Assembly (NCBI GenBank): GCA_021513695.1
Contig: CP084166.1
Coordinates: 768,001-832,000, forward strand
Direction of reading: 5' to 3'
From: Candidatus Heimdallarchaeum aukensis
GTDB taxonomy: Archaea > Asgardarchaeota > Heimdallarchaeia > Heimdallarchaeales > Heimdallarchaeaceae
Length of the DNA stretch: 64,000 nt
Below the pieces are notes generated by a model. It searched no databases, had not been told where the DNA came from, and was given only the letters and a program-made list of their open reading frames with translations. The position numbers and the translations under genes are program-made. This document shows, one piece after another, positions 2,901 to 38,788 of the stretch (the stretch's first letter is position 1; every line of letters starts with the position of its first letter).

Positions 2901-3096
2901 AGAATATTCAAGAGTCTATGCTACTGTTTTTCTTTTAATAATTAGTTTTCCTGTTGTTTTTATATCACAAAAATATATAGTTCCTTTTTTAGGAAATTAT
3001 GAAACAATTTATTGGTTTAGCGTTTTTTTATTACTTTCTTTTACTTTTCCCTTATTTAATTCAATTTTTTCAAAGATCATAGATAAAGAAAAATGA
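2866..3096 (+). CDS. small two-TM membrane protein
   Basis: 76 aa with two helices (VYATVFLLIISFPVVFI, IYWFSVFLLLSFTFPLF). Overlaps the upstream ORF. An alternative start, MTNREY, lies at 2890. Confidence 0.5.
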   Translation: MKTKKFKKMTNREYSRVYATVFLLIISFPVVFISQKYIVPFLGNYETIYWFSVFLLLSFTFPLFNSIFSKIIDKEK

Positions 3097-3181
3097 ATTA
3101 AACAATTCCCGACATTAATCGCAAAATAATGATTGGTGTAAGACACACATTTATATACCCTAATAAGGATATATTCAAAAA

Positions 3182-3400
3182 ATGACTGAAAGAATTATCC
3201 CTTTAATCTCACATTGTAAACAAGAAAAGATATCTATTTCACTACTTCTTTCTTCTTTAAGACTAATAGAAAAAGGCTTGATAAGAAAACAGTCTGAACT
3301 TAATGAATATCTCAAAAGAAGAGCAAAATATGAACCTCGAATCTTGAAAGATATTGAAAAAGTAGAAAGGTTGATTGTTGAAAGTAATATCATCAAATAA
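3182..3400 (+). CDS. small hypothetical protein, possible helix-turn-helix fragment
   Basis: 72 aa, charged and protein-like, with LRLIEKGLIRK. TTTATATA lies ~25-30 nt upstream of the ATG, which is compatible with a leaderless transcript. The antisense ORF 3175..3396 is low-complexity and hydrophobic. Confidence 0.35.
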   Translation: MTERIIPLISHCKQEKISISLLLSSLRLIEKGLIRKQSELNEYLKRRAKYEPRILKDIEKVERLIVESNIIK

Positions 3401-3405
3401 TTAAA

Positions 3406-4782
3406 TCATTCTATAACTTTCTTTCTTTTAGCATATTGTATCAGCATTTTAATGGCATAAGCAGCTTCTCGTGGATTTAGAAATATGGGACTACTTTCTT
3501 TTTTGGCTATTCTCTTAGATTCATTTAACAAATTTCCACTCATGAATATGGGAATTATAGGTTTCTTTCTACCTGTTTCATTCCACGCTCTAATAACTCC
3601 TTCATAATGTTCTGATGTGGTCATTCCTAAAAATGTGGGTATTACTGCAATTGGAACAACAATATCAATGTTAGGATCTTCTAGCATTGCTTTAGTTACT
3701 TCATAGTACTCTTTTCCAGTTGCTCCTGCTATCATATCCAGAGGATTAACCTTTTTTACTAAAGGAATCAAAAAAGGATCAATTTTCTCTTTGAACTCTT
3801 CAGTAAATGTGGCTAGTTTTAGTCCGAAATCATCCGCAAAATCACTGAACATCACTGCACTTCCTCCACTATTTGTTAGTACTCCTATTTTTTCGCCTTT
3901 AGGAAGTGGAAGAAATGAAAAAGCTTTAATTGCAGCAATGTAATCTGTGATACTTTCACACATTATGGCTCCTGCTTGTTTAACTGCTGTTTTTAGAGAA
4001 CTATAGTCTGTAGCCATAGAACCTGTATGGCTTGAAGCTGCTCCCATTCCAGTAGCAGTTCTTCCTCCTTTAAGTACAACAACGGGTTTATCTTTTGCTA
4101 CTTCATGTAGTTCTTCATAAAATACTCTTCCATCAACAACATTTTCTAAATAAATAGTTACCACTTTTGTGTTTTCATCTTCCTTATAGAACCTTAAAAC
4201 ATCTGTTAAATTTATGTCTGCCATATTTCCTAAATTTGCAAATTTAGAGAATCCTAATCCTTGCCAAACCATTTCATACAAAACTATTGCCCCAACTGAA
4301 CCTGATTGTGTAATCATGCTTACATTTCCTTTAGGTGGGGTTTGAATGAATGATGCATTCATTCCTATATCTACATTTTGTATTCCTACACAGTTAGGTC
4401 CTATTAACCTTATTCCTGCATCTTTCAATTTTTGAGATAACTGTTCTTGCACTTTTCTTCCTTCTTCATTAATTTCTGCAAAACCAGCAGTTACGATAAT
4501 AATCCTCTTAACTTTTTTCTCTATACATTCATCGACAACATGAGGAACAATCTTTGCAGGAACAAGTAAAATCGCTAAATCGATCTCATCTGGTATTTCT
4601 AGTACAGACTTATATGCTTTTAATCCTCCAATAGTTTCAGCTTTAGGATGAACAGGACACAATTTTGCTTTCAGATCTTTATTCTCCATTAAGTTAGCTG
4701 TTACAGCATGTCCAAACTTTTTTTCATTATCTGTCGCACCAATAATTGCAATAGAATCTGGATAGAAAAACTTCCTAGTCAT
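3406..4782 (-). CDS. ADP-forming acetyl/acyl-CoA synthetase, alpha (CoA-binding/ligase-CoA) subunit
   Basis: FFYPDSIAIIGATDNEKKFGH, IIIVTAGFAEINEEGRK and RLIGPNCVGIQN are typical of the NDP-forming acyl-CoA synthetase alpha / succinyl-CoA synthetase-like fold. No ATP-grasp beta subunit is adjacent. Confidence 0.85.
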   Translation of the reverse strand: MTRKFFYPDSIAIIGATDNEKKFGHAVTANLMENKDLKAKLCPVHPKAETIGGLKAYKSVLEIPDEIDLAILLVPAKIVPHVVDECIEKKVKRIIIVTAGFAEINEEGRKVQEQLSQKLKDAGIRLIGPNCVGIQNVDIGMNASFIQTPPKGNVSMITQSGSVGAIVLYEMVWQGLGFSKFANLGNMADINLTDVLRFYKEDENTKVVTIYLENVVDGRVFYEELHEVAKDKPVVVLKGGRTATGMGAASSHTGSMATDYSSLKTAVKQAGAIMCESITDYIAAIKAFSFLPLPKGEKIGVLTNSGGSAVMFSDFADDFGLKLATFTEEFKEKIDPFLIPLVKKVNPLDMIAGATGKEYYEVTKAMLEDPNIDIVVPIAVIPTFLGMTTSEHYEGVIRAWNETGRKKPIIPIFMSGNLLNESKRIAKKESSPIFLNPREAAYAIKMLIQYAKRKKVIE

Positions 4783-4872
4783 TGTTCTTTTTAGAAATTG
4801 TGTCCTTTTAATTTTTTCTTATTGAACTAAAAAAAGAGTGAAAAAGAGTTTTCAAAATATTAAGACGATTTT

Positions 4873-5835
4873 TTATTGGTTTATATATCCGTGCTCAATT
4901 ACACACTTATCAGCGTCTAGATTTAAAACACTTATAGTATACTTTTTGATGTCATCATAACTTGTACTCGTCTTATCTATAAGATCAGCGAGAATATCAA
5001 GCAACCTCCTAGCTTCCTCGTGACTTTCATCAGTTTTTATTACCAATCCAAAGATATGAGATTGTGAAGAACGGAGAATGAATTTATAGTCTTTAGACAT
5101 GATAAACTGAATAATATTTTGTTCATTGAAAGTTTTTTTTGCAAAAGTTTGTATAGCTGAGAGAAAACCAGAATAGAGAGATATTTTATCTGAAAGTTTT
5201 TTCTTTGAGATACTTAAAATTGGCAATCCATCTCTATCTGCAAGTAAAAAAGACTCAGGAGTAACTTTTCTTTTTTGAATAAGTTTAGATAACTGATTTT
5301 GTAACCAATATAGGACAGAATCAAAATTTTCTCCAGTTTGCATGCTTATCTTAAAAAATTGAAAAGAGGCATTTGGAATCATAGCGAGATTATATATTTC
5401 CACGGTATTGATAATTTCTTCCAGGTTCATACTATTTTCTAAATCTGCTTTGTTACACAGAAATAGAATTAGAAACTCATCTCCGTTATCTTTTAACTTT
5501 ATTGACTTCCAAAATTCTTCTTTTGCTTCAAGTAATGATTCTCTATCTGAAGAATCAATGATAAAAATTATCCCATAAGCTAACTTAATGTAATTTTCCC
5601 AGATAGTCTTTCTAAAAACTTCTTGTCCCCCTAAATCAAAAATATTTACTTTTAGATCAAATAGTTCATATTGTTCTAACTGAACCCCCATAGTTGGTTT
5701 AGGACTAGTGAATTTTCCTGTGAGAATTCTGTTAACAAAAGTAGTTTTTCCAGCATTAGGTAAACCTAAAATTACTAAAGGAATTCCTTTTTTCTCAAAA
5801 GAAAGTAGTTTTTCAGATATTTTCTTCTTACTCAA
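4873..5835 (-). CDS. Arf/Arl-like small GTPase fused to a C-terminal roadblock/longin-like domain
   Basis: G1 is GLPNAGKTT, G3 is DLGGQ, the Arf-like interswitch is WENYIKLAYGIIFIIDSSDRESLLEAKEEF, and G4 is NKAD. The C-terminal ~130 aa (FLLADRDGLPILSIS..SGFLSAIQTF..HIFGLVIKTD) fit a roadblock pattern. TTG start. Confidence 0.8.
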   Translation of the reverse strand: MSKKKISEKLLSFEKKGIPLVILGLPNAGKTTFVNRILTGKFTSPKPTMGVQLEQYELFDLKVNIFDLGGQEVFRKTIWENYIKLAYGIIFIIDSSDRESLLEAKEEFWKSIKLKDNGDEFLILFLCNKADLENSMNLEEIINTVEIYNLAMIPNASFQFFKISMQTGENFDSVLYWLQNQLSKLIQKRKVTPESFLLADRDGLPILSISKKKLSDKISLYSGFLSAIQTFAKKTFNEQNIIQFIMSKDYKFILRSSQSHIFGLVIKTDESHEEARRLLDILADLIDKTSTSYDDIKKYTISVLNLDADKCVIEHGYINQ

Positions 5836-5840
5836 TTTCG

Positions 5841-5856
5841 TTTAAACATGTTTAAA
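5841..5856. promoter_or_regulatory. perfect 16-bp palindrome TTTAAACATGTTTAAA just upstream of the Arf-like gene start
   Basis: The sequence is self-complementary, as read directly. It contains two opposed TTTAAA TATA-like hexamers and lies 6-21 nt from the TTG start at 5835, in a divergent intergenic region. Confidence 0.5.
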
Positions 5857-38147: not shown

Positions 38148-38242
38148 TGCTATAGTATAGAAATAAGATTTTTTAAATTGTTCCTTTTAATAATGCATTA
38201 ATACTTTAAAAAACTTAAAAAAGCATAAAAACAATTTGTCGT

Positions 38243-38788
38243 GTGATACAGAGGAACTACAAAATAATACTTATTGGAAATGCTCTTGTTGGAAAAACTG
38301 CTATTGTAACACGTTTTGCTAAAGATTACTTTGAACAGAACTATTTGAGAACGCTAGGAATCAATTACTACATAAAGACACAAGTAATTACTAATGTAGA
38401 AGTAAAGATGATTATTACAGACACCGCAGGACAAGAAGCGTTTCAACGCCTAAGAAGTTCGTATTACAAGGGGGCAAGAGGAGCAATAATTGTTTATGCA
38501 ATAAATGACAGACATAGCTTTGGACAAGTTGATTATTGGAAGAATGAAATGTTCAAGACTTTAAAAGAAATCCCAATAATAATTGTCGGAAATAAAATTG
38601 ACTTAATCGATCAAAGAAGAATATCAACAAGTGAAGGACGCTTGTTAGCGAAAAAATTGGGTTGTTTATTTATTGAATCATCTGCTAAAACAGGAGAAAA
38701 TATTGATAAAATCTTTGAAATGATAGTTAAAGATATACTAAGAAAAGATAATTTAATAACAGAAGAAAAAGAAGAAAGTTCTACTTAA
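38243..38788 (+). CDS. Rab-like small GTPase
   Basis: G1 is GNALVGKT, G3 is DTAGQE, then YYKGARGAIIVY, G4 is GNKIDL and G5 is SAKTGEN. There is no C-terminal Cys, so no prenylation motif. Confidence 0.85.
   Translation: MIQRNYKIILIGNALVGKTAIVTRFAKDYFEQNYLRTLGINYYIKTQVITNVEVKMIITDTAGQEAFQRLRSSYYKGARGAIIVYAINDRHSFGQVDYWKNEMFKTLKEIPIIIVGNKIDLIDQRRISTSEGRLLAKKLGCLFIESSAKTGENIDKIFEMIVKDILRKDNLITEEKEESST

Follow-up and report, generated by a model that had tools for sequence, protein, structure and literature searches.

Eukaryotic membrane traffic has Arf GTPases and longin domains among its core components, and each of the two has its roots in the Asgard archaea, among which the Heimdallarchaeaceae are one lineage placed near eukaryotes. 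Covalent fusions of a GTPase to a longin domain have been documented in Asgard genomes (Liu et al., 10.1101/2020.10.19.343400; Tran et al., PMC10933270; Zhu et al., PMC11914678), and in MK-D1, 26 of the 74 GTPases are fusions with a domain of the roadblock/longin superfamily (PMC10933270). The published fusions are either Rag-like proteins with a C-terminal roadblock (RB) or longin domain or ArfL/AArf proteins with an N-terminal longin domain, whereas the family described here is of ArfR type and carries its longin domain at the C-terminus. A specific description of a family with this combination was not found in the searchable literature.

The protein is encoded in a window of 64,000 nucleotides from Candidatus Heimdallarchaeum aukensis (contig CP084166.1, positions 768,001 to 832,000), to which all coordinates below refer. 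The ORF list and translation place an ORF of 320 amino acids at 4873..5835 on the minus strand, the strand on which all parts of the gene given below are located. A preliminary description made from the sequence had these coordinates exactly and omitted the strand. The complete CDS, an Arf-type GTPase fused to a longin domain, consists of 320 codons with a TTG start and a TAA stop codon (4873-4875), and its product is 100% identical to UJG41462.1 / MHA1415477.1, deposited as 'GTP-binding protein [Candidatus Heimdallarchaeum aukensis]'. Since the N-termini of homologues match in length and the stop-to-stop frame (4876-5841) adds just two codons upstream of the TTG, the start is well bounded. 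Both halves of the protein hold residues that are invariant among 51 aligned homologues, so the ORF is a real conserved gene under selection and not a chance reading frame. It encodes a two-domain protein composed of an ArfR-type G domain of the Arf family, a six-residue linker, and a true longin domain. That such a fusion is a known Asgard feature and fits the taxonomic call had already been proposed, and this agrees both with the literature cited above and with the origin of the window in an Asgard archaeon of the Heimdallarchaeaceae.

Sixty database homologues of about 315 amino acids share the whole architecture at 46-56% identity, and all of the named ones belong to Heimdallarchaeota/Heimdallarchaeaceae. 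Among GTDB species representatives, about 30 Heimdallarchaeota genomes proved to hold full-length copies, and fusions at 30-36% identity were detected in Promethearchaeota, Hermodarchaeota, and another Heimdallarchaeote. Relative to the window protein, identity is higher in the G domain (60%) than in the longin domain (37%). A copy with 88% identity occurs in H. endolithica, whose complete genome gave a single copy; H. endolithica PR6, a carrier of this orthologue, is among the genomes analysed by Vargová et al. (10.1101/2024.02.28.582541). Five MAGs have two copies.

The longin domain has a wider distribution than the family itself. A longin profile searched against 1.84 billion representative proteins recovered 133 relatives, which include other families of Arf with a C-terminal longin, 600-760-aa TPR proteins with the longin at their C-terminal end, and stand-alone longins of about 140 aa from Jord-, Frey- and Odinarchaeia. 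The sister fusion families come from Helarchaeota and Heimdallarchaeota; one example is P0083 (Helarchaeota), which scores 180 bits against the Pfam Arf profile and has a properly amphipathic N-terminus. Because relatives occur on other Arfs, on TPR proteins, and as free-standing domains, the longin module is, to judge from these homologies, a unit that has been reused in Asgard proteins, and fusion of Arf to longin predates the window protein's family.

The gene neighbourhood is also conserved. The order epimerase / GTPase followed by a CoA_binding/Succ_CoA_lig gene (3406-4782 in the window) recurs at 28 of the 33 family loci that could be assessed, with the neighbouring genes 65-73% identical and the GTPase about 50%. 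In at least three of the two-copy MAGs (bin51, CSMAG_2326, CAZJUB), one copy is located at the epimerase/CoA-ligase locus and the other elsewhere. Despite this strong synteny, co-transcription with the downstream CoA-ligase-like gene seems unlikely in the window. Runs of T5 and T7, read from the sequence 28-46 nt past the GTPase stop codon (4829..4845, minus strand), form a putative archaeal oligo-T terminator, and because they follow the stop directly, the two genes in the window are probably transcribed separately. Neither a second longin module nor a roadblock, longin or GAP/GEF-like partner gene was found within the 64-kb window.

The Arf-family G domain spans residues 17-188 (5272..5787) and ends in a long C-terminal helix (171-188). 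Its Arf-type motif set is complete: the G1/P-loop GLPNAGKT at residues 24-31 (5743..5766), in which G24 and K30 are invariant in 51/51 sequences; T48 in switch I; DLGGQ of G3 at the start of switch II, residues 67-71 (5623..5637), placed by alignment and column counts; NKAD of G4 at residues 128-131 (5443..5454), directly preceded by an invariant C127; and SMQ at G5. The motifs listed in the preliminary description are all present, GLPNAGKTT at 24-32, DLGGQ and NKAD at the positions just given, and DSSDRE within IIDSSDRES at 92-100. Given that the key G1-G5 residues are invariant in all 51 family members, the G domain is expected to be an intact, working nucleotide switch. The catalytic position 71 is Gln in the window protein and His in 48 of the 51 members. 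Gln71 occurs in the three Heimdallarchaeum proteins and is coupled to a change in G5, so that the combinations are Q71 with Q166 versus H71 with K166. In Arf proteins, the interswitch toggle is a two-residue register shift between the GDP and GTP forms, and sequence correlates of the toggle are present here, with T48, G50, and E54 in the Arf1 register and with an invariant F66 (W66 in Arf1), W79, and Y82.

The N-terminal segment ahead of the G domain, residues 1-16 (MSKKKISEKLLSFEKK; 5788..5835), was delimited by AF2 secondary structure, hydrophobicity, and column counts. Its F13-x-K15-K16 preserves the Arf register seen in ARF1, and F13 is present in 47/51 members. AF2 predicts a short polar/basic helix at residues 3-10, which has no hydrophobic face, and residues 2-13 have a mean hydrophobicity of -0.22 and a hydrophobic moment of 0.34, compared with 0.47 and 0.52 in ARF1. 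Residue 2 is Ser, in agreement with the earlier statement that the protein lacks Gly2 and hence N-myristoylation; a true second-residue Gly is found in 3/51 family members and in none within the window's genus. A membrane-binding amphipathic N-terminal helix with Gly2 was looked for in the window protein, and the polar helix and Ser2 were found in its place. With these features, the window protein is unlikely to use the classical Arf output, in which a hydrophobic or myristoylated helix inserts into the membrane.

Asgard Rag-like GTPases are frequently annotated as Arf (PMC10933270), and members of the 'ArfL' group are not genuine relatives of Arf (10.1101/2024.02.28.582541). For these reasons, we calibrated the Arf assignment on labelled references, namely the ArfR, ArfL, and RagGtr sequences in Table S3 of 10.1101/2024.02.28.582541. 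The motifs had been taken in the preliminary description as marks of the Arf family, and this holds only in part. GLDNAGKTT and WDLGGQ are found in labelled Asgard RagGtr proteins too, so that GLxNAGKTT and DLGGQ do not discriminate Arf from Rag, while NKxD at G4 does bear on the question, the family having an invariant CNKxD where the RagGtr references mostly have HKxD. The profile tests point the same way. With Pfam, the window protein scores 123-125 bits against Arf (cut-off 22.3), covering positions 6-173 of the 174 in the profile, versus 54 against Ras, 41 against SRPRB, and 20.2 against Gtr1_RagA (cut-off 22). Among the references, GerdArfR1 scores 168 against Arf and 23 against Gtr1_RagA, ArfL proteins score 65-82 against Arf with incomplete coverage, and RagGtr proteins score 68-100 against Gtr1_RagA, so that 123/20 with full coverage is the ArfR pattern. 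NCBIfam returned the generic small_GTP model alone and left the C-terminal domain without a match. The nearest solved relatives by sequence are GerdArfR1 (8OUN/8OUM) and HodArfR1 (8OUL/8OUK), followed by eukaryotic Arf1, and the best 50 Foldseek matches all belong to the Arf family.

Group HMMs were built on identical trimmed columns, and leave-one-out classified every reference correctly. Family members score 108-128 bits against the group of ArfR and eukaryotic Arf (in which all eukaryotic reference sequences except ARF1 were entered by hand), as opposed to 54-66 against ArfL and 42-60 against RagGtr. In neighbour-joining (NJ) trees, the family is monophyletic in 200/200 and 488/500 bootstraps and groups with other Arf-longin fusion proteins in 417/500, while the deep split of the Arf clade is weakly supported (84/200 and 81/500). 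Removal of P0088, a rogue taxon in these trees, did not raise the support for the deep Arf clade. Since simple NJ trees do not resolve this clade, the assignment rests on the group HMMs. Grouping with ArfL was seen in 0/200 and 0/500 bootstraps and grouping with Rag never. An ArfL identity was rejected on the group HMM scores, the NJ result, and the position of the longin, which is C-terminal rather than N-terminal. A specific affinity to Sar1, suggested by the DLGGH of most family members, was likewise rejected, as the family joined SAR1 in just 19/500 bootstraps. The comparison of the G domain with Arf, Sar, and ArfR groups that had been suggested as a check thus places it with Arf/ArfR, although the deep split in the trees is weak. 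Sequence comparison in this form confirms that the G domain belongs to the Arf family and is of the ArfR type.

The C-terminal module of about 130 aa that had been noticed in the sequence is real and covers residues 189-320. It begins with a six-residue inter-domain linker, RKVTPE (residues 189-194; 5254..5271), delimited by AF2 secondary structure and containing P193, which is present in 51/51 sequences. The longin domain follows at residues 195-320 (4876..5253). In the AF2 model, it consists of strands at 195-200 and 205-211, a helix at 218-234, strands at 242-246, 250-256, and 260-267, helices at 272-288 and 293-303, and a terminal strand at 311-315. The resulting topology, β-β-α-β-β-β-α-α, is that of a longin domain; a model of the isolated domain has the same order, and the nearest solved folds in a fold comparison are longin domains. 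The helix ahead of β1 belongs to the G domain, as its C-terminal helix. The full-length model has a pTM of 0.86, and this value, together with the short linker and its invariant proline, suggests that the G domain and the longin form a fixed two-domain unit.

In profile searches, Fuz_longin_1 scores 27.2 bits with the isolated domain and 25.3 with the whole protein (cut-off 26.1), and 12 of 23 family C-terminal domains match it at E up to 0.1. With 17.4 bits, Robl_LC7 stays below its cut-off of 23, and its match is confined to the β1-β2-α1 part. This partial match is explained by a G-[LF]-P motif in the hairpin entering β2, GLP at residues 203-205 (5221..5229; G203 in 51/51, P205 in 49/51), since G-[LF]-P is a generic signature of roadblock/longin hairpins (DG[LF]PI). 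No PDB sequence matched a profile of the domain significantly; of the relevant ones, a Thorarchaeota roadblock came closest, at E 0.97. A roadblock/LC7 fold, with its α-β-β-α-β-β-β topology, was rejected because of the low Robl_LC7 score and because the domain has two C-terminal helices as longins do. The earlier call of a roadblock/longin-type module therefore stands as far as the longin fold goes, while the 'roadblock-like pattern' behind it is the generic hairpin. According to the models, the C-terminal module is a longin domain within the roadblock/longin superfamily. A second conserved element, EEARR (residues 273-277; 5005..5019), lies where helix α2 begins and is near-invariant, with E274, R276, and R277 in 51/51 sequences. 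It is specific to the family and absent in the sister Arf-longin fusion families; it could be catalytic.

An important question is what a switch of this kind does with a longin domain attached to it. Longin and roadblock domains serve as docking or dimerisation platforms in Rag GTPases, TRAPP, Ragulator, and the SRβ-SRX pair, and overwhelmingly they do so as dimers. To our knowledge, Rag GTPases are the only well-studied case in which such a domain is covalently attached, and there the appended domain dimerises and the regulators act in trans. For the Asgard fusions of GTPases with longin or RB domains, dimers formed through these domains have been predicted (Tran et al., PMC10933270). We favour, with about even confidence, a cytosolic Arf-type switch whose output runs through the built-in longin platform for docking and/or dimerisation, with GAP and GEF activities supplied in trans. 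The protein would act as a GTP/GDP molecular switch without the classical Arf membrane output, coupled to a platform that may bind partners, dimerise, or both. As the longin begins right after the C-terminal helix, it would sit on the back face of the G domain, by the pocket of the N-terminal helix and interswitch and away from the nucleotide site, a position expected from the linker geometry and the usual layout of Arf structures. The most economical mechanism would be that nucleotide-driven movement of the interswitch alters the G-longin interface and thereby what the longin platform binds.

Several considerations lead us to this platform role. Longin and roadblock domains are usually platforms, the Rag GTPases offer a precedent, and dimers are predicted for the Asgard fusions; in addition, the short linker puts the longin where the interswitch toggle could be read. 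A generic docking or dimerisation module also fits better than a dedicated catalytic partner because the same longin is carried by TPR proteins and also exists free-standing. No solved two-domain chain, the Rag chains and LokiRagO included, matches both domains of the full model in superposition (159/293 residues align), so the analogy with Rag covers the logic of the arrangement and not its geometry.

A rival explanation is that the fused longin regulates the G domain to which it is attached, as its GAP or GEF, either in cis or, between the subunits of a homodimer, in trans. Precedents for such regulators are MglB for MglA, the Mon1-Ccz1 longins for Rab7, and the longins of FLCN, SMCR8, and NPRL2 for Rag and Arf. 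The C-terminal domain's best Pfam match, through Fuz_longin_1, is to the first longin domain of MON1/FUZ/HPS1 RabGEFs; the G-[LF]-P motif is located where longin GAPs have their GP motif, and the invariant R276 and R277 of EEARR could provide an arginine finger. The His that replaces the catalytic Gln in most members is shared with Sar1 and SRβ, which are partner-dependent for hydrolysis, and the high pTM implies a fixed contact between G domain and longin. On the other side, G[LF]P is the generic hairpin and not a contiguous GP motif; published longin-GAP arginine fingers, of the FLCN, SMCR8, NPRL2 type, adjoin the GP motif, while EEARR, by topology, would be distant from the β1-β2 loop, at the other end of the sheet; and the six-residue linker, on the Arf structures, would place the longin on the face away from the nucleotide. 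The lack of EEARR in the sister families and the Rag precedent, with its appended dimerisation platform and regulators in trans, speak against it as well. By these analogies, an intramolecular or homodimeric regulator pair is unlikely, and less likely than the platform or dimerisation role.

More broadly, and in our view quite improbably, the longin may be a nucleotide-state-dependent partner in cis, either as part of a self-contained Arf plus longin-GAP unit operating through the EEARR arginines or as a covalent counterpart of SRβ-SRX. If true, the protein would be a prokaryotic single-chain prototype of Arf/longin pairs (CSW-Arf, SRα-SRβ) that were later split in eukaryotes, and its adjacency to a gene resembling NDP-forming acyl-CoA synthetases could hint at coupling to nucleotide or energy status. 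The second of these forms holds that the longin, as an effector in cis, binds the switch region in the GTP state only, making a self-latching switch, and that the protein is possibly an evolutionary relative of the eukaryotic pair. Neither Pfam nor fold comparison tied the protein specifically to SRX or SRβ, be it in sequence or in structure, and we consider this form very improbable. Almost no credence is left for a Rag/Gtr-type GTPase with a C-terminal dimerisation domain that is mis-scored as Arf like many 'Arf-annotated' MK-D1 proteins: the layout, in which about 130 aa of a C-terminal domain from the roadblock/longin superfamily follow the G domain, the P-loop and DLGGQ motifs common to Asgard RagGtr, the habitual annotation of Rag-like proteins as Arf, and the two paralogues of some genomes, which recall RagA/RagC, are outweighed by the Pfam and group HMM scores, the NKxD at G4, the longin rather than roadblock fold, NJ trees that never joined the family to Rag, alignment of LokiRagO over the G domain alone, and the single copy in the complete H. 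endolithica genome, which together largely refute it.

The family combines a bona fide ArfR-type switch that has dropped the membrane-inserting N-terminus with a permanently attached longin, and it has been kept across the Heimdallarchaeaceae. It would offer a convenient single-polypeptide system in which to study communication between an Arf switch and a longin, whether as platform, effector, GAP, or GEF, a question that in eukaryotes must be approached through multi-subunit complexes. Current views are unchanged by it, since GTPase-longin fusions are already catalogued in Asgard archaea; we see in it a real but fairly ordinary addition to these fusions, with a proposed mode of action.

Among known systems, the ArfR proteins HodArfR1 and GerdArfR1 (8OUK/8OUL/8OUM/8OUN; Vargová et al.) are the closest solved ones both by sequence, at 28-34% identity with E values of 1e-25 to 1e-27, and by fold. 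They share the pattern of Arf, ArfL, and Rag profile scores, and the switch II segment of the window protein is one residue longer, as in HodArfR1. The two ArfR1 proteins consist of one domain of about 185 aa and attach to membranes by a hydrophobic N-terminal amphipathic helix, in contrast to the polar N-terminus and extra C-terminal longin of the window protein and the His at the catalytic Gln position in most of its family. The Asgard fusions of GTPases with longin or roadblock domains, the 'Rag-like' proteins of MK-D1 (PMC10933270) and the 'Rag family GTPases with fused longin' of Liu et al., have the same covalent design but are classed as Rag-like, whereas the window protein has an ArfR-type G domain and a longin in place of a Rag-CRD roadblock. 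ArfL (Klinger 2016) and the AArfs with longin (Zhu et al., PMC11914678) also join an Arf-annotated G domain to a longin-like module; theirs is N-terminal, and ArfL G domains have DxAGQ and match the Arf profile incompletely. Eukaryotic Rag/Gtr proteins, in which a G domain is followed by a C-terminal α/β platform, provide the best functional analogy for a platform role, although their G domain is of another family with HKxD at G4, their C-terminal domain is a roadblock CRD, and they are obligate heterodimers. SRβ-SRα(SRX) and Sar1 resemble the window protein's family in being Arf-family GTPases with His at the catalytic position, and SRβ·GTP binds the longin-fold SRX, but SRβ and SRX are two polypeptides and SRβ has a transmembrane anchor.

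In the window, a 458-aa CoA_binding/Succ_CoA_lig protein resembling the α part of NDP-forming acyl-CoA synthetases is encoded at 3406-4782 (minus strand). In 28 of the 33 assessable family loci (among L001-L034, on contigs of GTDB species representatives), the GTPase gene is followed directly by a homolog of this gene in the same orientation, and an epimerase gene is usually found upstream. Across these loci, the neighboring genes share 65-73% identity, while the GTPase itself shares only about 50%. Since runs of T5 and T7 are present past the GTPase stop codon (4829-4845), the GTPase and the CoA-ligase-like gene appear to be on separate transcripts in the window.

Five Heimdallarchaeota MAGs each contain two copies of the family (locus pairs L007/L011, L008/L015, L009/L010, L022/L024, and L032/L034). 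In at least 3 of these MAGs, synteny with the CoA-ligase-like gene is seen for only one of the two copies, a pattern that points to two paralogous subfamilies. It is possible that these are heterodimer partners.

The EEARR motif where longin helix α2 begins (residues 273-277; window 5005-5019, minus strand) contains three residues, E274, R276, and R277, that are invariant in all 51 family members, and the sister Arf-longin families lack the motif. Within the alignment of these members (A1), substitutions at the catalytic position 71 (codon at 5623-5625) and at position 166 in G5 (SMQ; codon at 5338-5340) are coupled. Q71 and Q166 occur together in the three Heimdallarchaeum proteins, and the remaining members carry H71 (48/51) and K166 (46/51).

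Only one other small GTPase was detected within the 64-kb window, a 189-aa Ras/Rab-like protein at 38219-38785 on the plus strand (Pfam Ras, 178.8 bits). At locus L004 of the Asgard MAG GCA_013166775.1, the second gene upstream from the GTPase orthologue (364 aa; 2980-4074, minus strand) matches the Pfam N-myristoyltransferase family (NMT, PF01233), a curious neighbor since the GTPase family lacks Gly2.

Longin domains of the same type also occur in other architectures. Proteins combining TPR repeats with a terminal longin make up a large set among the 133 C-domain relatives, including P0084, P0095, and P0099, which are 600-760 aa long with the longin at the C-terminus. Among the Helarchaeales rows of Table S3 of Vargová et al. 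(10.1101/2024.02.28.582541), several labelled ArfL GTPases, such as NVM28342.1, are extended at the N-terminus by a longin-like stretch of about 120 aa; in these proteins, the arrangement is the mirror image of the C-terminal longin of the GTPase studied here.
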